Shown in pieces: positions 19,582 to 29,659 of a stretch of 64,000 bases of DNA. Under the pieces are notes generated by a model. The model was not told where the DNA came from and did no database searches. It worked only from the letters and a program-made list of their open reading frames with translations. The stretch is taken from positions 224,001 through 288,000 of the forward strand of contig CAXRHT010000001.1 of assembly GCA_964230645.1 (NCBI GenBank). Reading direction: 5' to 3'. Every line of letters starts with the position of its first letter. The first letter of the stretch is position 1. Position numbers and translations under genes: made by a program. Source of the stretch: Bdellovibrionales bacterium. Its GTDB lineage: Bacteria; Bdellovibrionota; Bdellovibrionia; Bdellovibrionales; JAGQZY01.

Positions 19582-20043
19582 ATGTCAATACTAGCGCGAT
19601 ACAAAAAACCAGGTGGCTTTAAACAGCTCCTCCAGCTCATCGAGACCAGTCAACCCCTCAAACAGGAAAAGCTCCTCGAAGTTGTTGAAAAGGAGGATCC
19701 CTCTTGGGCACAAAAAATTCGAGAAAAGAAAATCAGTCCAGAAATGGTTCTTGAATGGGAACATGACCATCTATCTTTGATTTTTGAGAACATGATCTCA
19801 CAACACTGCTCTAATATTTTCAAGTCTATGGGAGAGGAAAAGATCAAAGAGTTCTCAACTCTCCTGCGGGCCGATAAATATCGAGAGCTTAAGCAGCTTG
19901 TTGACGACTCCTCAGAGCCTAGTCCATCCCAGTTAGCCGCGGCTTACAGTAATATGCTGGAAACTGTTCGCTATCTTGACGAAGAAAAAATTATTGATTT
20001 ACGCTATATCGATCCTGTCCTGGATCTAGGAGAGGCGGTTTAG
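19582..20043 (+). CDS. FliG C-terminal-domain-like protein
   Basis: N-terminus MSILARYKKPGGF...EKEDPSWAQKI and a helical C-terminus resembling stand-alone FliG-C proteins. Confidence 0.6.
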   Translation: MSILARYKKPGGFKQLLQLIETSQPLKQEKLLEVVEKEDPSWAQKIREKKISPEMVLEWEHDHLSLIFENMISQHCSNIFKSMGEEKIKEFSTLLRADKYRELKQLVDDSSEPSPSQLAAAYSNMLETVRYLDEEKIIDLRYIDPVLDLGEAV

Positions 20044-20084: not shown

Positions 20085-21542
20085 TTAGGTTCCCTTTTTA
20101 TGTTTTGGAAAGTAGCAGATAAATTCGCTACCAAGACCCGGAGCACTTTTTAAATCCACATGCCCCTCCATTTTAACCATGCAGTTTCGGACGATCGAAA
20201 GTCCTAAACCTGTTCCCTTAGCTTGTTGGTTTTGTTCGTCGCGCACTCGGTAAAAACGTTCAAAAAGTCGGCCTTGATGATAGCTTTCAATTCCCGGCCC
20301 ATTGTCTTTTACGCTCAAAAAACTATAGTTCTCCCCTTCACCCCAGCGAATTTTGATCTGTGAACCTTTTTGGGTGTATTTAATAGCATTCTCAACAAGG
20401 TTTACCAGAACATGCTCAAGGAGATCATAGTTGGCCTTGATCTTTTTTATTTCGTAACTCATATGAATGTCCGATTCATGCTCACGAATGTGTCCACTCA
20501 AGTCATGAAGCACAGCTTCGGTAATCTCCAATGTGTCTAGGTTTTCTATATGCACAGACTCGGCCGATTCAATTTTTGATAACTCTAAAAGATCTTGAAT
20601 AATATTATTGAGACGAAAAAGATTGTTCTCAACCACCTTGAAAGACTCCTCAAGGGTGGAATTGTTTTTCGCCATACTGTCTTTAATAAAACCCAAATAG
20701 CCTTGTATCGAAGTCAATGGAGTTTTTAGTTCATGGGAAGCATTGGCCACAAAGTCCATGCGGACCTTTTCTAATTTTTTGTGATCGGTGATATCGTGAA
20801 AAATAGCTACGGCTCCACGGGTGCGATTCTTTTTTTCATCCAGAAATGGAGAGATGGAAACTTGAAAGTAGTGAGTGGCCGAGTCCACCGACATATCATG
20901 CTGGGCCCCTACCCACTGACTTTTCTGTGTTCGAATACACTCGTTAAAGCCTTCAATGATTTTCTGACTGCGTAGAATTTCGTTGAGCTTCTTACCCCAA
21001 TTGCCTTCTTCTTTTTGATCAAAGAAAAGAGCCATGGGGGCGTTGTAGTAGCGAATGTTCATGTCGCGATCGACGGCCAAAATGGCATCGTTTGCGGCCG
21101 TGAGAAGGGCCTCTAACTCATTTCTTTCCTTTTCAACATCCGCTTTTTTGGTCTTAAGATCTTTCCAAATCTTATTGAGGGATAAATCGAGCTGATACCA
21201 CTCCCCTCGGCTCTCTTTAATCACTTCACTTTTTTTAATATTAAGAGAGCCCTTTTTAATCGCCCTAGCTTTTGCGATCAAAGCCCCTAGAGGCGAGAAA
21301 AAAAGTCGCACGTAAACGAGGCCAAAAATCATGGCCATGGCGAGTAAGACCCAAAACGAGTAAACTAAAACCTTATCGAGTTCAGAAAAAAAGCGGGCGA
21401 TTTCCGGCTGGCTCGCATCGAGCTTGGTTTTTAAGAAATAGCGGAAAAAAGAGCCGACCAGCAAAAATAAAAACAGAAAAAAGCCCACAAACCAGGTGTA
21501 GGCTTTTCGACTGACAATGGCGGCAGACTTAAAAATGGTCAT
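20085..21542 (-). CDS. phoR: Phosphate regulon sensor kinase PhoR
   Basis: TM-HAMP-PAS-HisKA (FVANASHELKTPLT)-HATPase (NLVENAIKY, DNGPG, GTGLGL); downstream of phoB. Confidence 0.88.
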   Translation of the reverse strand: MTIFKSAAIVSRKAYTWFVGFFLFLFLLVGSFFRYFLKTKLDASQPEIARFFSELDKVLVYSFWVLLAMAMIFGLVYVRLFFSPLGALIAKARAIKKGSLNIKKSEVIKESRGEWYQLDLSLNKIWKDLKTKKADVEKERNELEALLTAANDAILAVDRDMNIRYYNAPMALFFDQKEEGNWGKKLNEILRSQKIIEGFNECIRTQKSQWVGAQHDMSVDSATHYFQVSISPFLDEKKNRTRGAVAIFHDITDHKKLEKVRMDFVANASHELKTPLTSIQGYLGFIKDSMAKNNSTLEESFKVVENNLFRLNNIIQDLLELSKIESAESVHIENLDTLEITEAVLHDLSGHIREHESDIHMSYEIKKIKANYDLLEHVLVNLVENAIKYTQKGSQIKIRWGEGENYSFLSVKDNGPGIESYHQGRLFERFYRVRDEQNQQAKGTGLGLSIVRNCMVKMEGHVDLKSAPGLGSEFICYFPKHKKGT

Positions 21543-22245
21543 CCCTTATTCGGTAACCGATTCCTCGCACCGTTTCAATTAAATCTGCATATTTCCCCAA
21601 TTTTTTTCTCAAACCAAAGACATGGGTATCAATGGTTCGCCCTATCACAGAGATTCCCTCGCCTTGCACTTCCTCAATCAAACGGGCTCGGGTTAAAACT
21701 CGACCGCGATACTCGAGCATCGTAGCAAGAAGCTTAAACTCCGAAGGGGTGAGGCTAAGCATTTCCCCGTCTAAGTAAGCTTTGTAAGTTTTAAGGGATA
21801 CTCTTAAAGGGCCCACCTCAATTTCATCTTGCAAATCCGGCTGACTACTTTGTACCGGGGCCACCGTGTTTCTCTGCACTCTTCTCAACAGAGAAGACAT
21901 GCGCGCTTTAAGAATGTCGGGGCTAAAAGGCTTGGTGATATAGTCATCAGCCCCAGCCTCAAGACCCTCAACAATATTATCGGGATCCGACTTGGCGGTA
22001 AGCATAAGAATGGCAATATCTTTCATGGTATCCATTTTTCGAACCAACTGAGCAATCTCAATTCCTGAGAGTCCTGGCAGCATCCAATCAAGCAACATCA
22101 CATCGTAGCTGTCTCGGTTTAATAAAGCCAAAGCCTCTTCTCCGGAGGTGACATGATCCACAGAGTAGCCCATATTCTCAACCTGCATTTTTAACAGACG
22201 TCCAATATCCATTTCATCTTCAACAATTAATACCCTAGAACTCAT
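21529..22245 (-). CDS. phoB: Phosphate regulon response regulator PhoB
   Basis: LLDWMLPGLSG, GADDYITKPF, RTIDTHV and TVRGIGY motifs. ATG at 22245. Confidence 0.85.
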   Translation of the reverse strand: MSSRVLIVEDEMDIGRLLKMQVENMGYSVDHVTSGEEALALLNRDSYDVMLLDWMLPGLSGIEIAQLVRKMDTMKDIAILMLTAKSDPDNIVEGLEAGADDYITKPFSPDILKARMSSLLRRVQRNTVAPVQSSQPDLQDEIEVGPLRVSLKTYKAYLDGEMLSLTPSEFKLLATMLEYRGRVLTRARLIEEVQGEGISVIGRTIDTHVFGLRKKLGKYADLIETVRGIGYRIRDDHF

Positions 22246-22942
22246 TGTTTCCCTCCCTTGGCCCATCAAGTTCTCGTTCTCCACTTTCGTGTCGAATGTC
22301 CTCCCCTGAAATGAGGAAGATGGCTTCTTCGGCAATGTTGGTTGCATGGTCACCGATCCTTTCTAAGTTGCGAATAATTGTGAACAGTTCTAAATTTCCA
22401 TCAATATTGGTTTGGCTCTTACGCATAGACTCGCGAATGGCTTCACTGAGGGAGTCACGGTATCCATCCACGGAGTCGTCAATTTTCAAAACTTCCCTAG
22501 CCTCCTCCTCATCGTTTTGAATGAAGGCATTGAGACCTTTTCTGACCATCAGACGAACCAGGTCGGCCATTTTAGGGATTTCGTTGGCCACAGGCAGAGG
22601 CTGACCTTTCATGTAGTCATAGATGCTATAGGTCATTGAACAGGCTAAATCCCCCATGCGTTCAAGATCCATAGCCATTTTCGTGCAAACCAACAACAAG
22701 CGCAGATCCGAGGCCACGGGAGATTGTCTAGCCAATAACTTAAAGCAGTCTCGATCTATTTTTTTATGGAATTCATTAATTTTGTCTTCCAGTTCAAAAA
22801 CTCGCTCGAGACCTGCCGTATTTTTCTTGGCAAGGGCTTTGGTTGAGATCACAATGGACTCCTCCACCAATCCCGACATTTCATTCACCGCTGATTTCAG
22901 ACGGGTGAGATATTGTTGTAAAAGAGTATCCATATTAACCAA
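22235..22942 (-). CDS. phoU: Phosphate signalling protein PhoU
   Basis: PVASDLR, DLERMGD, DDSVD and LERIGDHATNIAE motifs. Confidence 0.95.
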   Translation of the reverse strand: MVNMDTLLQQYLTRLKSAVNEMSGLVEESIVISTKALAKKNTAGLERVFELEDKINEFHKKIDRDCFKLLARQSPVASDLRLLLVCTKMAMDLERMGDLACSMTYSIYDYMKGQPLPVANEIPKMADLVRLMVRKGLNAFIQNDEEEAREVLKIDDSVDGYRDSLSEAIRESMRKSQTNIDGNLELFTIIRNLERIGDHATNIAEEAIFLISGEDIRHESGERELDGPREGNNEF

Positions 22943-23696
22943 ACCTTCCGGTAATATAATCTTCCGTTCTTGTATCTTTGGGGTTCATAAAAAGGTCCGA
23001 AGTCTTTCCAACCTCAATCAACTCACCATCAAGAAGAAAGGCGGTGCGATCAGAAATACGGGCCGCCTGCTTTCTTGAGCTGGTAGTGAATATGACTGGG
23101 AACTTTTCAGAGAACTCCCGAATTAATTGTTCAATTTGTAAGGTCACTTGTAAGCCCACTCGGCTAGTCACCTCGTCCATCAACATAACTTTTGGCTTCA
23201 AACAAAGAGAGCGCGCAATACATACAAGCTGTTTTTCACCAGCGCTTAAGCGTTGTGGATAGCGATTTAAATTTTGTCTTAAATCATCCCATAAACCCAC
23301 TTGAATCAAAGCCTTTTCGACAGCCTCTCCGATATGAGCTCCTGACTCAATACGGTTCAGTCTCATGCCTAAGGCAATATTTTCAAAAATCGACAAATGA
23401 GAAAACGTGGTGGGCTCGGCAAAGATCATAGAGAAATTACGGCGAAGTTTAAGTAAATTGTAATGACTAGAGAGAAGGTTTTTACCATTAAACCAAATTT
23501 CCCCCTCGACCCGATTTCCCTGCCTCTCTTCAAAGAGACGGTTAATACACCGGAGCAGAGTGGACTTACCACTTCCCCTAGGGCCAATAATTGAAAGTAT
23601 TTTTTTATTCTCTACACCGAGATTCACTCGGTCTAAAATTTTGCGAGAATCTGACCAGGCCTCTAGATCCTTTATATCCATAATTGTTTTAGCCAT
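22935..23696 (-). CDS. pstB: PstB-family ABC ATPase with degenerate catalytic motifs
   Basis: Walker A GPRGSGKST, QAARISDRTAF and C-terminal TEDYITGRFG are typical of PstB. Q-loop, signature, D-loop and H-loop are altered. Confidence 0.88.
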   Translation of the reverse strand: MAKTIMDIKDLEAWSDSRKILDRVNLGVENKKILSIIGPRGSGKSTLLRCINRLFEERQGNRVEGEIWFNGKNLLSSHYNLLKLRRNFSMIFAEPTTFSHLSIFENIALGMRLNRIESGAHIGEAVEKALIQVGLWDDLRQNLNRYPQRLSAGEKQLVCIARSLCLKPKVMLMDEVTSRVGLQVTLQIEQLIREFSEKFPVIFTTSSRKQAARISDRTAFLLDGELIEVGKTSDLFMNPKDTRTEDYITGRFG

Positions 23697-24450
23697 ACTC
23701 CACCTCGTGATAATTCATTTGGGAATCGAGCACGGCCCTAAGTAGATGAAGCAAGACAAAGACAAGAGCAAGGCTGGCTGTTTTTTGCTGATCCTTGGCG
23801 ATATGAAAGAAAAACTCAAGGGAGAGATAGTGAAAGTCCCCATCACTATCTGAAAACAAGAATAAAAATGGAGTCACTAAGGCCACCAAATAAAGAAAGG
23901 TCGAGACAAAGTGTCCCCCATAGGTTTTGTAGTAACGTCTGATAAAGAGTTGATAGGCGATCACAGCCCGACTGAGCCCCATGGCTTGCATGCCCTCAAT
24001 TTCTAGGGATCTTATTTTTTCAGAAATTTGAATCCAACGCTGACTGAGTTTAATAGCTCCAATAAAAAAGAGACTGGTAAACATTATGATTTTTTGACCA
24101 CTAAAAACGTAAAGAAAACCCACCCCAATGAGGAGAACGGGAGTTCGAACGAGCCAATTCAAAAGCCTTCGAATCCCGGGATTTGATCTCGTGTGTTTTC
24201 TTGAAATAAAAATATAAGTGGCCGCTCCACTAAATGGCGCTGCCGTCAATAAGCTAATCAAAACCAATCCCAGAGTTTCTGGCAAATAGGTCATATCCTG
24301 CAATATTTGCGATAAGGAAATATTATAAAAAATATGAAAAGCCAGAACCAACAGATAGGAAACCAGTAAAATGAAGGAGAAACTAGCCAACAAATAAAGG
24401 CTTAACATCATCGAGTGGTTGGTACGGTTACGAAATTCACGACGAGGCAT
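23689..24450 (-). CDS. pstA: PstA-like permease, highly divergent
   Basis: Position between pstC-like and pstB; multi-TM; degenerate EAA loop IEGMQAMGLS. Confidence 0.6.
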   Translation of the reverse strand: MPRREFRNRTNHSMMLSLYLLASFSFILLVSYLLVLAFHIFYNISLSQILQDMTYLPETLGLVLISLLTAAPFSGAATYIFISRKHTRSNPGIRRLLNWLVRTPVLLIGVGFLYVFSGQKIIMFTSLFFIGAIKLSQRWIQISEKIRSLEIEGMQAMGLSRAVIAYQLFIRRYYKTYGGHFVSTFLYLVALVTPFLFLFSDSDGDFHYLSLEFFFHIAKDQQKTASLALVFVLLHLLRAVLDSQMNYHEVEYG

Positions 24451-25423
24451 AAGCTTGCCTCTCTTTTTTAATAAATTTCATCTCAACATAGGTAAAAGCC
24501 AGATAACAAACGAGCAGCACTCCTGCTATTTTCCATAAGAAAGCTTCCTCAAGGGGGCGCTTGATGGAAAAGGAAATAAAAAGTGAACTCAAACTCGCCC
24601 CCCACTGCTCGTGGTGTGGTCGATGATTGAACATAAAAAAGTGCAGGAGAGAGTAAGTGATCAAACCTTCGAAAAAACAGACTCGAGTGAAGTGAATAAG
24701 TATGGAGTTGAATCGATTTTTCATCGACTGCATCACTGTCATATGAATGCTTTCCCATGAGGTTCCGCCGAGAGACTTAATAATCTCAAAACTTTTTAAG
24801 CTCTCCTCCCCTTTCAAGGTTTTCTCCATAAAAAGAATCATTTTAGGTAAGATGTAGAGAAAAAGGCCGAGAACAACCACTACTGCCACAAGCCCGGCTT
24901 GCGCAAAATCGATCACTCTCTCTAAGGTCGATTGAAAAAAAGAATCCACGCTTAAGTCGGCATCGAAAAAAGGAAGAATCGTTAAAGGGTATAAAAGCAG
25001 AGTAATGGCAAAGGCCACCGATTGGGTCAAAAAATTAGAAGACGAAAAGAAATAGGTCCACTGATTTTGAAGAGCTAAAAAGCCCGGCTCCCCAATCACC
25101 TCTACATAGATGTAAACAAATAAAACCAGAGGCAAAGACGAGTAATATTTTAAGAACACTCGGATGGCGCGAATCAGTCGCCCCTTTTTTCTATGCTCCA
25201 TCAATGTGGCAAAAGAAAGAGCAAAGGGCCAACTAGAGAGGCTGGCTAACAATGAAACACTCAAGCCCACTGAAACCCATAGAAAGATTTTTCGAAAATC
25301 AAAAGATTCAAGATCGAGAAACAATGCCACCAAATAAAAGGCGCCCAACCCACAAAGAGCGGCAAGATAGAGGCTAATGAGTAGGAAAACGATCTTTTCC
25401 ATTCCTTTAAAAATAAGACTCAT
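24437..25423 (-). CDS. pstC: PstC-like permease, highly divergent
   Basis: TM pattern SSLPLVLF and ILPKM; EAA-like FEIIKSLGGTSWESI; first gene of the operon. Confidence 0.65.
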   Translation of the reverse strand: MSLIFKGMEKIVFLLISLYLAALCGLGAFYLVALFLDLESFDFRKIFLWVSVGLSVSLLASLSSWPFALSFATLMEHRKKGRLIRAIRVFLKYYSSLPLVLFVYIYVEVIGEPGFLALQNQWTYFFSSSNFLTQSVAFAITLLLYPLTILPFFDADLSVDSFFQSTLERVIDFAQAGLVAVVVVLGLFLYILPKMILFMEKTLKGEESLKSFEIIKSLGGTSWESIHMTVMQSMKNRFNSILIHFTRVCFFEGLITYSLLHFFMFNHRPHHEQWGASLSSLFISFSIKRPLEEAFLWKIAGVLLVCYLAFTYVEMKFIKKERQAYASS

Positions 25424-25518: not shown

Positions 25519-25545
25519 TGTCAAGATTCTGTCAAGATATTCTCA
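25519..25545. promoter_or_regulatory. 11-bp-period TGTCA direct repeats (Pho-box-like) between pstC and dinB
   Basis: TGTCA at 25519 and 25530, TCTCA at 25541. Confidence 0.65.
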
Positions 25546-25620: not shown

Positions 25621-26703
25621 ATGGACTACGGTCATCGCAAGATTATCCACATTGATATGGATTGCTTTTACGCGGCTGTTGAGATGCGTGATCGTCCGGA
25701 TCTCAAAAATCGCCCACTAGCTGTGGGTGGTTCTCCCACAGGTCGTGGCGTACTAACCACCTGTAATTATCCAGCCAGGCGCTATGGTTTGCGCTCAGCT
25801 CTCTCCGCCAGAGAAGCCGTTAAACTCTGCCCTGATTTAGTCATCTTACCCGTTCGCATGAACAAATACCGGGAAGTCAGTCTGGAAATCTTAGAAATTA
25901 TGAAAAGCTATGCCTCTAAAATTGAAAGAGTTTCACTCGATGAGGCCTACTTGGATGTCACAGACTCCTCTCTCTTTGAGGGCAGTGCTAGTTTAATCGC
26001 AAAGAAGTTGCGTACAGACATTCGCGAAAAACTTGATCTCACGGCCTCTGCCGGAATTGCTCCCAATAAATTTTTAGCCAAAGTGGCCAGTGATTGGAAA
26101 AAGCCCGATGGGCAATACACTCTTGCTCCGGCTGATATCCCAGAATTTATAAAAACCCTTCCCGTTCAGAAAGTGCCAGGCGTGGGTCGTAGTTTTCTCG
26201 CTAAACTCTCCGAGAAAAATTTGAAAACCTGTGGAGATCTTCAGGCGATCAGCCTCAGTGATATGACTCACTATTGGGGCCAATGGGGAGCCAGACTTTT
26301 TGATCTTTGCCGAGGAGTGGATCAAAGCCCTGTGAGGTCAGAGAGAAAACGGAAGTCCATTTCCGTTGAAAGAACTTTTCGGAAAGATATTTCCACTTGG
26401 GAGGATTTGCGTCCTTGGGTAGAAAATCTTTTTGAGGAGCTTGAGTACCGAGTGAATAAAAACAACATCCAAACGGAACAACTCAAAAGCCTTGGAGTGA
26501 AAATGAAAACCCAGGACTTTGAAATTACAAGCCTTGAGAAGACTCTTCCCTTTGAGCTAGATAGCTATCTAGATCTCAGCCAAAAACATTTTTACAATCA
26601 GAATAAACCACTAAGACTTTTGGGGCTGGGTGCAAAACTCAACGAAAAAACTGAAAAGAAAAACCGCCAACAAATGAAGTTTGAACTAAGTCCAGGAGTG
26701 TGA
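25621..26703 (+). CDS. dinB: DNA polymerase IV
   Basis: HIDMDCFYAAVE, YPARRYG, SLDEAYLD and NKFLAKVASDWKKPDG motifs. Confidence 0.97.
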   Translation: MDYGHRKIIHIDMDCFYAAVEMRDRPDLKNRPLAVGGSPTGRGVLTTCNYPARRYGLRSALSAREAVKLCPDLVILPVRMNKYREVSLEILEIMKSYASKIERVSLDEAYLDVTDSSLFEGSASLIAKKLRTDIREKLDLTASAGIAPNKFLAKVASDWKKPDGQYTLAPADIPEFIKTLPVQKVPGVGRSFLAKLSEKNLKTCGDLQAISLSDMTHYWGQWGARLFDLCRGVDQSPVRSERKRKSISVERTFRKDISTWEDLRPWVENLFEELEYRVNKNNIQTEQLKSLGVKMKTQDFEITSLEKTLPFELDSYLDLSQKHFYNQNKPLRLLGLGAKLNEKTEKKNRQQMKFELSPGV

Positions 26704-27558: not shown

Positions 27559-28284
27559 CTACTTCAAGCAGTCGCGATACTGCCTCACCGTATTTTTCCA
27601 CCCCTCATTAAGAGCGTCACAGACCAAGGCGTGACCAATGGAAACTTCGGCGAGTTCGTCAATATGGTCATTGAAGAACTTTAAATTGTGGAGGTTTAAG
27701 TCATGACCAGCATTGACCTTCATTCCCATGGAATCGGCGAGCTTGGCGCACTTCTGATAGGCTTTGATTTCCTCTTCCTGCTGCCCCACCTTGAAAGCCT
27801 CAGCATAAGACTCGGTGTAAAGTTCCACGCGATCCACACCAAGATCTCGAAAAGCCAGAAGTTCTTTCATTTGAATTTCATTAGGATCCACAAAAAGAGA
27901 GACGCGGATATTTTTATTTTTCAATGTCGAGATCGCTTTTTTAAGGAGCTCCTCATTGCCTTCAAGCCTCCAACCCGCATTGGAAGTGAGCACCTCAGGT
28001 GGATCGGGTACGAGAGTGCACTGGTCCGGCTTTATTTGACCCACCTTCTCTAGAAAATGGCTCTCCGGAAAGCCCTCAACGTTGAGTTCCACTGAAATAT
28101 TTTCTTTAAGTTCTACCACATCGGGCCAGCGGATGTGGCGACCATCAGGCCTTGGATGAACGGTAATCCCCTGAGCGCCGAATTCGATAATCTTTAAAGA
28201 TTCACTGAGTACATTGGGTAGATCTTTACCTCGCGCATTGCGAAGGGTGGCTACCTTATTCACATTCACACTCAGTCGGGTCAT
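27559..28284 (-). CDS. pdxJ: Pyridoxine 5'-phosphate synthase
   Basis: LSVNVNKVATLRNARG, TVHPRPDGRHI, NAGHDL and EVSIGHAL motifs. ATG at 28284. Confidence 0.96.
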   Translation of the reverse strand: MTRLSVNVNKVATLRNARGKDLPNVLSESLKIIEFGAQGITVHPRPDGRHIRWPDVVELKENISVELNVEGFPESHFLEKVGQIKPDQCTLVPDPPEVLTSNAGWRLEGNEELLKKAISTLKNKNIRVSLFVDPNEIQMKELLAFRDLGVDRVELYTESYAEAFKVGQQEEEIKAYQKCAKLADSMGMKVNAGHDLNLHNLKFFNDHIDELAEVSIGHALVCDALNEGWKNTVRQYRDCLK

Positions 28285-28408
28285 GAGGCTCTTTATAGCG
28301 GAAAAATGGAGGAATACAAAGAAAAATCCTACGCCTCCACGGGGTCCTTGCGGTGGACTCTTGGCCCATTTAAGGATAAGCTCAGGCTTTCTAATGGGAG
28401 GAAGAAAT

Positions 28409-29659
28409 ATGAAGTTGCAACCCGTGCGAGGAACGCGAGACATTTACGGCGAAGAAGCTCTTCTTTTTAGAGAAATCGAGAGCCAGTTTTCCCGCACAGC
28501 AAAAATCTTTGATTTTCACGAGATTCAAACCCCCATTTTTGAATTCACTCAAGTTTTTAAAAGATCTCTTGGTGACGAAACCGATATTGTTAATAAAGAA
28601 ATGTACACTTTCGAAGATCGCAGTGGTGATTCTCTTACACTGAGACCTGAAGGCACAGCCAGTGTTGTGCGCTCAGTTCTTTCCGAAAGTCTGCTTAGAG
28701 ATTTACCTTTGAAGCTTTTTTACTCAGGTCCGATGTTCCGTCACGAAAGACCACAAAAAGGGCGGTACCGACAATTCACTCAGTTTGGAGTAGAAATGAT
28801 TGGTGTCGGCGATCCGGTGGGTGACATCGAAATTCTTTCTTTTGCTTGGAACTTTTTTAAAGGCTGCCAGCTTGATAAAAAAGTCGAACTTGAAATCAAC
28901 ACCATCGGTGATCTTGAAAGCCGTAAAAAATATCTAGATAAGTTGACCACCTTCTTAGAGTCCTACAAAAAAGATCTATCAGAGGATTCGCAAAGACGCC
29001 TTAAAAGCAATCCCCTTCGAATCTTAGATTCCAAGGACGAAAATGATAAAAAGATCGTCAGTGAGGCCCCTAGCCTTTCAGATTCACTTAATGACGAGTC
29101 GAAAAGTTTTTTCGACCAGGTACTCTCTGGTCTTGAGAAGTTGGGGCTTTCCTATAAACTCAATCCCCTTCTTGTGCGTGGTTTAGATTATTATAACCAC
29201 AGTGTTTTTGAATTCACCACAACCCATCTAGGCTCACAGAATGCCGTACTTTCTGGTGGCCGTTACAATAATCTTATTGAAACCATGGGAGGTCCCAGTA
29301 CACCGGGTGTAGGTTGGGCTGCGGGGACCGATAGAATTGCCTTACTTTTAGAAAAACCCAAAAACCCTCACAAAACATTGGCTCTTATTGCTGCCACAGA
29401 GAAAGGTAGCGAGCATCGTTTTAAACTCCTCAACGAGCTGCGAGAGGCGGAAATTCCAAGCCAAATCATTTACTCCGGTAACATTTCAAAACAAATGAAA
29501 AAGGCGAACAAACGTAACTGTTCCCACGCTCTCATAATCGGCGACGAAGAGATTGAAAAGGAAACCTATGAGCTTAAGAATTTAAAGGATGGTTCCCAGG
29601 AGAGTTTTCCAAAGGAGAAACTTTTTGATTTTCTAAAAAAACAAGACTGGGGCCTTTAA
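28409..29659 (+). CDS. hisS: Histidine--tRNA ligase
   Basis: RGTRD, LRPEGTA, FRHERPQKGRYRQF, LVRGLDYY and GGRY motifs. ATG at 28409. Confidence 0.97.
   Translation: MKLQPVRGTRDIYGEEALLFREIESQFSRTAKIFDFHEIQTPIFEFTQVFKRSLGDETDIVNKEMYTFEDRSGDSLTLRPEGTASVVRSVLSESLLRDLPLKLFYSGPMFRHERPQKGRYRQFTQFGVEMIGVGDPVGDIEILSFAWNFFKGCQLDKKVELEINTIGDLESRKKYLDKLTTFLESYKKDLSEDSQRRLKSNPLRILDSKDENDKKIVSEAPSLSDSLNDESKSFFDQVLSGLEKLGLSYKLNPLLVRGLDYYNHSVFEFTTTHLGSQNAVLSGGRYNNLIETMGGPSTPGVGWAAGTDRIALLLEKPKNPHKTLALIAATEKGSEHRFKLLNELREAEIPSQIIYSGNISKQMKKANKRNCSHALIIGDEEIEKETYELKNLKDGSQESFPKEKLFDFLKKQDWGL

Follow-up and report, generated by a model that had tools for sequence, protein, structure and literature searches.

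A Pst phosphate transporter remnant that has probably given up transport and kept its part in PhoU–PhoR signaling in a genus of Bdellovibrionales

Why should a bacterium maintain a phosphate importer whose motor and phosphate-binding motifs appear to be gone? The question is raised by a six-gene cluster, pstC-pstA-pstB-phoU-phoB-phoR, in a 64-kb stretch (the window) of a Bdellovibrionales genome of 3.78 Mb in three contigs, 99.6% complete (termed G000; its genus is termed g1). A first-pass annotation of the window had proposed that transport by this ATP-binding cassette (ABC) complex was lost, with the complex kept for regulation. The failure to find a pstS or second pstB gene, motif losses across a whole clade, and ratios of nonsynonymous to synonymous substitution (dN/dS) far below 1 agree with that proposal: transport has very probably been lost, and a signaling role is probably retained. 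The phosphate input of PhoR (transporter conformation, flux, or cytoplasmic phosphate) has long been debated, and PMC5775613, PMC10055408, PMC12301784, and a Caulobacter preprint disagree. A natural loss of PstS and of transport in which PstCAB, PhoU, and PhoR are kept separates the two jobs of the complex and shows which residues signaling needs. In addition, such genomes are annotated with a phosphate ABC transporter ATPase, yet they are probably unable to pump phosphate this way.

The cluster consists of six minus-strand reading frames with zero internal stops:

24437..25423, minus strand, pstC-derived membrane subunit, 328 amino acids (aa)
23689..24450, minus strand, pstA-derived membrane subunit, 253 aa
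22935..23696, minus strand, pstB-derived nucleotide-binding domain, 253 aa
22235..22933, minus strand, phoU, 232 aa from ATG, or 235 aa from TTG at 22942
21529..22245, minus strand, phoB-type response regulator, 238 aa
20085..21542, minus strand, phoR-type kinase, 485 aa

The genes are thus intact and free of frameshifts, as had been reported, but they do not overlap at every junction: four junctions overlap, and pstB and phoU do so only with the TTG start, a 1-nt gap remaining if phoU begins at the ATG common to its homologues. The best family for PstB is TIGR00972, with a score of 265 against a cut-off of 343. Neither membrane protein matched a PstC/PstA family or an ABC-permease family in Pfam or NCBIfam; both were identified by profile comparison with Escherichia coli and seven working relatives (PstC, probability 88, E 3e-6; PstA, probability 96, E 2e-9). 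For their predicted folds (predicted local distance difference test scores of 80 and 82, respectively), the best three matches in the PDB were the corresponding E. coli PstC or PstA chains solved by cryo-electron microscopy. An extra helical insert of the window PstC is common to the working PstC of genus g3. Profile, fold, gene order, and this shared insert show that the window PstC, PstA, and PstB are homologues by descent of the E. coli proteins.

PhoU, PhoB, and PhoR look canonical in their key motifs, as the first-pass annotation had it. PhoU scores above the TIGR02135 cut-off with both LERxGD motifs intact, whereas PhoB and PhoR match PhoB/PhoR-type families best with scores under the cut-offs. 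PhoR crosses the membrane with two helices joined by a short outer loop and has a PAS domain; the H-box (HELKTPLT) and the boxes for ATP binding are intact and are retained in all complete copies, as is the acceptor Asp of PhoB. The DNA-binding helix of PhoB is conserved. Gene order is the same in the 12 other genomes of our genus sample (13 with G000), in two of which (G001 and G009) the sequence runs out within phoR, at a contig end or close to one. Four marine metagenome runs from a single study, of which two may be its source, match this stretch letter for letter wherever they cover it. Because these runs are identical and the same motif losses recur in the PstB of the 12 other genomes, all without stops, an assembly artefact is excluded.

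In order to compare PstB with its working relatives, we used 49 clusters at 90% identity obtained by protein search, which form one branch of a quick tree (Shimodaira–Hasegawa-like approximate likelihood ratio test, SH-aLRT, 100), and 88 canonical sequences (71 search matches and 17 from genomes of the order), all in E. coli numbering. Alignment to E. coli PstB returned the quoted motifs exactly as written, and the first-pass list of losses stood; it had overlooked the additional loss of the A-loop aromatic. Five of the seven ATPase motifs, whose roles are summarized in PMC7756269, are gone: the A-loop aromatic (present in 1/49 clade sequences), the Q-loop Gln Q98 (1/49), the signature SGG (0/49), the D-loop D185 (8/49), and the H-loop His H210 (0/49), each of them found in 88/88 canonical sequences. 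The Walker A Lys K49 (48/48 aligned), the Walker B pair D178-E179 (48/49), of which E179 is the catalytic Glu, and Q160 (49/49), the site of the E. coli Q160K mutant, are retained. In place of H210-N211-M212-Q213 the clade reads S-S-R-K, with the basic pair in 48/49 sequences against 0/88 canonical ones:

23070..23087, minus strand, new T-T-S-S-R-K motif in place of the H-loop, PstB residues 204-209

Overall identity within the clade is 0.64, compared with 0.67 among canonical sequences (0.62 for order members). Conservation has fallen in the signature (0.53 versus 0.93) and the D-loop (0.44 versus 0.91) and is higher in residues 214-257 (0.86-0.89 versus 0.58-0.77). No second pstB was found in G000 by tblastn, the best other ATPase being 29% identical; because this PstB is the sole copy in the genome, both sites of the dimer are affected.

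The membrane subunits have lost their phosphate ligands as well. In the E. coli structure, phosphate lies between PstA R220 and PstC R237, with PstC E241 bracing (PMC12976172). The window PstA has Tyr and Leu at the positions of R220 and E224, which bears out the reported absence of the ARxxGETAP motif; among 14 PstA sequences, the R220 position holds Arg in one and Lys in two. In PstC, TRVCFFEG does replace GRALGET as had been noted, with two refinements: the R237 position is occupied by Val, the Arg of this segment lying one residue earlier, and the bracing Glu survives as E252 (E241 in E. coli). This register follows from counting without gaps from the Trp of the coupling helix and from basal homologues that read RAFFE or KAFFE. 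Arg is found at the R237 position in 0/13 PstC sequences, F250-F251-E252 is invariant (13/13), and bulky Phe residues, one of them at Gly240, stand where Gly lined the phosphate pocket. Basal PstC homologues from a library clustered at 50% read RAFFE, KAFFE, and KAFVE instead of the canonical RALGE, which suggests that the change from Gly to a bulky residue preceded the loss of Arg. The first periplasmic loop is approximately 11 residues shorter in PstA, where the lost part includes the proline stretch that touches PstS, and approximately 19 residues shorter in PstC as judged by hydropathy. The coupling helices are still recognizable in both. A search of the 50% library for this PstC (termed type 1) gave 18 representatives at E 1e-10, and none was found outside genus g1 among 401 genomes of the phylum.

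The pump also lacks its outer component. Searches of G000 with PF12849, TIGR02136, and TIGR00975 found no pstS; the sole weak PF12849 match is the N-terminus of one gene, which we take to be LysR-like. PhnD and PitA families were likewise not found in this genome, which encodes a 380-aa Na/phosphate (Na/Pi) symporter. Thus neither the second canonical pstSCAB nor the orphan pstS that the first-pass annotation suggested looking for was detected in G000, and the absence of pstS that it had noted in front of pstC extends to the whole genome and, by PF12849 at E 1e-10, to the genus (0/13 genomes). No binding-protein gene lies beside the operon at 13 loci. By comparison, PF12849 detects pstS in 9/10 genomes of genera g2-g4 and in 265/301 genomes of the order. 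TIGR00972 matched in 279/301 order genomes, 256 of them above the cut-off, and all 12 sampled genus genomes fell below it. The symporter family is found in 8/13 genus genomes and PitA in 0/13.

Selection has nevertheless been maintained on the operon. We calculated dN/dS by the Nei–Gojobori method (NG86); with dS of 0.7-2.4 or saturated the values are rough, and none is near 1. For the two least saturated pairs, G002/G008 and G012/G001, dN/dS was 0.012 and 0.070 for PstB, 0.022 and 0.159 for PstC, 0.086 and 0.190 for PstA, and 0.010 and 0.109 for PhoU, respectively, with 0.152 for PdxJ in the second pair. PstB is as constrained as PhoU and PhoB. The same motif losses across the clade and dN/dS far below 1 were what the annotation's proposed check on relatives returned. 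PstA is the fastest-evolving gene of the operon, under relaxed constraint: its identity is 50% between G000 and G004, where PdxJ has 82%, in contrast to 74% and 58%, respectively, in a working pair. Across four pairs PstA identity is 47-53%, with PdxJ at 81-85% in three of them, and PstC is better conserved than PstA. The frames are open in 13/13 genomes although synonymous sites are mostly saturated.

A sister form of the module (type 2) surfaced from a hunt for phoU in family genomes without a PstB or PstS match. It consists of one membrane gene of 231-239 aa, a 237-aa PstB remnant, and phoU-phoB-phoR, and it occurs in 8/390 genomes of the class, all in this family (g4, 6/6; g5, 1/2; g6, 1/1):

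L183:6979-8425, L184:6832-8234, L185, L186, L203, L204, L205, L207, type-2 loci, in genomes G015, G016, G017, G019, G022, G023, G024, G041

A ThrE-family exporter gene follows the operon in all seven loci that extend that far. In type-2 PstB the Q-loop and signature are lost (8/8), the Walker A Ser/Thr is changed (8/8), the Walker B DE is present in 1/8, and the His is kept in 3/8; dN/dS is 0.01-0.06 in four close pairs. The membrane protein is strongly conserved and is not recognizable as PstA or PstC, homology to which found no support (hhalign E 0.01-0.8). Four of these genomes (G015, G019, G023, and G024) carry, besides type 2, a separate motif-intact pstSCAB without adjoining phoU, so that transport and signaling appear to be split between two Pst copies; in G016 and G017 we found no pstS and no canonical pstB. 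A tree of PhoU+PhoB+PhoR from 25 genomes (G001, G009, G021, G022, and G032 omitted as incomplete) joins both dead forms (SH-aLRT 100) as sister to g3, in a quick tree with long branches flagged. Because this tree groups type 1 with type 2, a single origin of both would be the simplest reading. In genus g3 the same operon follows pdxJ with fully canonical motifs, and pstS is relocated elsewhere, next to genes that are presumably ppx- and ppk-like. The pdxJ gene of the window (27559-28443, minus strand) is a conserved upstream marker common to g3 and G028.

The operon carries a predicted regulatory site upstream of pstC:

25520..25537, minus strand, direct repeat TCTTGAC, twice with an 11-bp period, approximately 115 nt upstream of pstC, predicted PhoB box

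The 11-bp repeat resembles PhoP/PhoB boxes and would be bound by PhoB. It is exact before pstC in 10/13 genus genomes, has one mismatch in G011, and ranks 1/2851 among upstream regions of G000 with a matrix built without G000. It also precedes pstS of working relatives and five Na/Pi symporter orthologues (G000, G003, G005, G007, and G004), of which the first four sites lie in the top 0.25, 0.07, 0.04, and 3.7% of G000 upstream scores, respectively; one symporter paralogue of G009 has no repeat. A pattern-shuffle control gave 2 real hits against a mean of 0.08 and a maximum of 2 in 60, a comparison that is partly circular as the pattern comes from pstC sites, and the Markov control of the scan is a single noisy sample. 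A genome-wide regulon could not be drawn from the matrix, just the top two or three sites exceeding background. The second-best site of G000 comprises three tandem repeat copies upstream of an MgtC-family gene (G000:C2:1639630-1640536, L171). As a conserved regulon member mgtC was rejected: the repeat is strong in G000 alone, weak in G004, and no better in 10 other copies. Salmonella MgtC activates PhoR (PMC6658541), and by analogy the mgtC repeat may form a feedback loop.

If PstB no longer pumps, the parts of it that remain conserved may indicate what it touches. At least 95% of type-1 and at least 90% of canonical PstB retain V130, A216, S219, E249, and T253, all five of which are changed in 4/4 transport-only PstB of g4. 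E249, which is kept in 48/48 type-1 and 8/8 type-2 sequences, lies in the tail:

22938..23000, minus strand, PstB C-terminal tail, residues 233-253, includes E245 (E. coli E249)

Among working PstB of the order, E249 is kept in 10/10 with an adjacent phoU and lost in 8/11 without one, a tally that spans about four lineages, in which the contig of G054 ends before the next gene and G027 and G037 were judged on 1.5 kb. A Fisher test (p 0.001 by sequence, 0.015 by lineage) serves as a guide only, as kin are not independent. PhoU binds PstB (PMC4423584, PMC13577022); the available parts of these two papers gave no residue map of the binding, and our full-text literature search found no solved structure of the PstB-PhoU interface. 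We infer that the tail around E249 and A216 is a candidate PhoU-docking surface. The comparison of dead copies with pumps lacking an adjacent phoU yields a small set that can be tested in E. coli PstB: E249, A216, V130, S219, and T253.

On these grounds we consider it reasonably probable that the PstCAB remnant, under purifying selection, is a membrane scaffold for the control of PhoR by PhoU, with cytoplasmic phosphate as the input. Without signature, D-loop, Q-loop, and H-loop, the PstB domains would be unable to close and hydrolyze ATP, and the PstC-PstA-PstB2 complex would rest inward-open, which in E. coli is the conformation that reports sufficient phosphate. There, loss of any pst gene or of phoU leaves PhoR kinase-on, Pst is needed to repress PhoR, and a PstB mutant that cannot transport, and that is predicted to remain inward-open, gives the sufficiency signal (PMC5775613). 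That the complex is still needed to switch PhoR off would explain its retention after pumping was given up. PhoU would dock on the conserved PstB tail, and phosphate in the cytoplasm would act as the switch by binding to PhoU and/or to the retained P-loop with its new S-S-R-K neighbors. Some input should remain, since a permanently-off system would be useless and yet kinase, regulator, and box are conserved; it is likely inside the cell, because without PstS nothing outside is readable. Salmonella PhoR is set by a cytoplasmic signal (PMC10055408), Mycobacterium smegmatis PhoU responds to Pi directly (PMC12301784), and PstCAB assembles without PstS and binds Pi with a dissociation constant of 7.76 mM, Pi inhibiting its ATPase (PMC12976172). 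A drop in phosphate would then turn PhoR into a kinase, and PhoB would switch on both this operon and the Na/Pi symporter, the latter performing the actual uptake. The least secure step is the ligand: loss of the A-loop, a kept P-loop, and gain of S-S-R-K would suit a site for an anion more than one for ATP.

A bolder extension, which we offer tentatively and regard as doubtful, is that Pst modules devoted to signaling alone make up a separate class of receptors derived from ABC transporters, one that has evolved repeatedly. One ancestral transport loss would have led to the two forms described here, the dead type-1 ATPase site (P-loop, Walker B acids, and S-S-R-K) would have been rebuilt to sense cytoplasmic phosphate directly and to switch PhoR via PhoU docked on the PstB tail at E249, and g4 would fully divide transport and signaling between two Pst copies.

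Several observations weigh against the scaffold model. With E179 and Q160 retained, the protein does not replicate either of the E. coli lock mutants. PhoU A147/R148, which E. coli requires for contact with PhoR (PMC4423584), are conserved neither in the window nor in working Bdellovibrionales relatives. The S-S-R-K motif is not present in type-2 PstB and so cannot be a universal sensor. The repeat is missing before pstC in G012 and G001, where pdxJ abuts pstC, and none was found before type-2 operons; the symporter site of G000 scores 11.2, a level that antisense controls equal (14 versus 12 regions at or above 10), so that it rests on conservation. Five genus genomes (G001, G006, G010, G011, and G012) yielded no PstS, PitA, or Na/Pi symporter, and their phosphate is possibly prey-derived. 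E249 is kept in three of the 11 pumps without adjacent phoU, and the four g4 sequences in that count are one event. Finally, Caulobacter PhoB signaling was reported not to follow cytoplasmic phosphate (10.1101/2023.10.07.561339), and M. smegmatis PhoU reads Pi without Pst, where no such scaffold would be required (PMC12301784).

A related possibility is that the module only signals but its P-loop binds ATP, ADP, pyrophosphate, or another phosphorylated compound, so that PhoR reads the energy state. The Walker A Lys and Walker B acids are kept throughout the clade, the new basic pair adjoins the former gamma-phosphate site, and degenerate ABC sites that bind without hydrolysis are well known (PMC7756269). 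However, the aromatic that stacks on adenine is lost in 48/49 sequences, a loss that shortens ATP residence in ABCC7 (PMC7756269), and the signature by which the partner domain clamps ATP is lost in 49/49; type 2, with its DE in 1/8 and its Walker A Ser/Thr changed in 8/8, is equally conserved. We regard this reading as unlikely, and ATP as the signal, which had been suggested for the window, as the weakest part of the original proposal, given the lost aromatic, the eroded type-2 Walker B, and predicted PhoB targets that are still phosphate genes.

It is less probable still that PstC and PstA read a different membrane or periplasmic cue, with PstB a mere adaptor to PhoU and PhoR. The invariant new residues F250-F251-E252 of PstC, its helical insert, and its conservation above that of PstA would suit such a sensor, as would the single well-conserved membrane protein of type 2. 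Against this, the first periplasmic loops are shortened, not enlarged, PstA drifts fast (in the four pairs given above), and the predicted PhoB targets remain phosphate genes.

Residual transport is similarly improbable, whether as a slow phosphate facilitator or as a transporter of another solute that uses a residual or borrowed ATPase and binding protein. A D-loop mutant can make an ABC exporter a nucleotide-gated facilitator (PMC7756269), the catalytic Glu and coupling helices are kept, and no other phosphate importer was found in five genus genomes. Yet His, Gln, and signature are lost together in all copies of a homodimeric site, both phosphate arginines are gone with bulky Phe residues in the pocket, no binding-protein gene lies at the 13 loci and no PstS/PhnD family member was found in G000, and g4 retains a separate working pump beside its type-2 form.

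That the genes are decaying relics, open merely through overlap and translational coupling to phoU-phoB-phoR, is very improbable and largely refuted by low dN/dS, motif counts, and type-2 conservation: PstA and PstC have diverged beyond the family profiles and one of 14 loci (L059) has pstC in three pieces, which may be a sequencing error, but PstB dN/dS is 0.01-0.07, all 13 genus frames stay open at mostly saturated synonymous sites, and new residues have become invariant. The record of L059 is titled Kofleriaceae bacterium; its operon and flanking genes are as in g1, which suggests a mislabelled or mis-binned record.

Retention of a transporter homologue for control of a two-component kinase is known from UhpC-UhpB, which the window module resembles in this respect; UhpC, a secondary carrier, binds its ligand on the outer side, whereas the module derives from a multi-subunit ABC importer without outer input and likely acts via PhoU. 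With the E. coli PstSCAB-PhoU-PhoR/PhoB system (PDB 9k3s, 9k3x, 9k3y; PMC12976172, PMC5775613) it shares the PstC/PstA/PstB folds, the gene set, PhoU, a PAS-containing PhoR without a large outer domain, and predicted autoregulation by the 11-bp repeat. It differs in lacking PstS, the phosphate arginines, and five ATPase motifs, in having S-S-R-K, and in that transport is apparently handed to the Na/Pi symporter. The module thus lacks what defines a working PstSCAB and likely works like the signaling half of the Pst-PhoU-PhoR complex. The laboratory mutants PstB Q160K, PstA R220Q, and PstC R237Q (PMC5775613) likewise lose transport with PhoR repression still possible, but they are single substitutions with PstS kept, whereas the losses here are natural, fixed in a clade, and under selection, with Q160 and E179 kept. 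Degenerate ABC exporter sites (PMC7756269) also lose catalytic motifs as Walker A persists; there one of two sites is dead and transport continues, whereas here the damage affects both sites and extends to the A-loop. The tandem PstB1/PstB2 of Enterococcus faecalis (PMC12096839) are PstB paralogues with unequal roles, both described as ATPases of a working importer, in contrast to a genome with no working PstB. A full-text literature search, which covered few subscription papers, found no natural transport-dead Pst. This suggests that what is new here is a genus-wide natural Pst without PstS and motor motifs, kept alongside PhoU and PhoR, together with its sister form.

Other low-scoring PstB were considered as further dead copies, and none qualified among the 5/11 non-genus genomes below the TIGR00972 cut-off that were inspected: G132 and G164 have amino-acid ABC ATPases, G047 and G054 have motif-intact pstSCAB, and G072 has an assembly gap. 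Nine loci with distant PstB matches proved to hold ordinary ABC ATPases or one working pst operon. The pstSCAB of G047 (L129:6855-10167) and G054 (L130) are divergent, and their PstB lacks the usual C-terminal tail sequence; a gene adjoining the former is presumably arsenite-methyltransferase-like.

The repeat also occurs away from phosphate genes. An exact match (G000:C2:19943-19960) lies upstream of an operon that we take to be heavy-metal efflux-like, with TolC-like, 1047-aa resistance-nodulation-division, and cation-diffusion genes; a different regulator of the OmpR family might bind there. In G012 (L143, G012:C2:2452097) and G001 (L144, G001:C34:96032), an exact repeat is found within conserved intergenic DNA that has no sense open reading frame shortly downstream, where it might serve a small RNA or short gene. 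In the window, dinB (25621-26703, plus strand) diverges from pstC, and the repeat sits in their common intergenic region. At the other end of the operon, a stand-alone protein of 153 aa, weakly similar to FliG C-terminal/MgtE-N domains (19582-20043, plus strand), is convergent on phoR in most genus loci.

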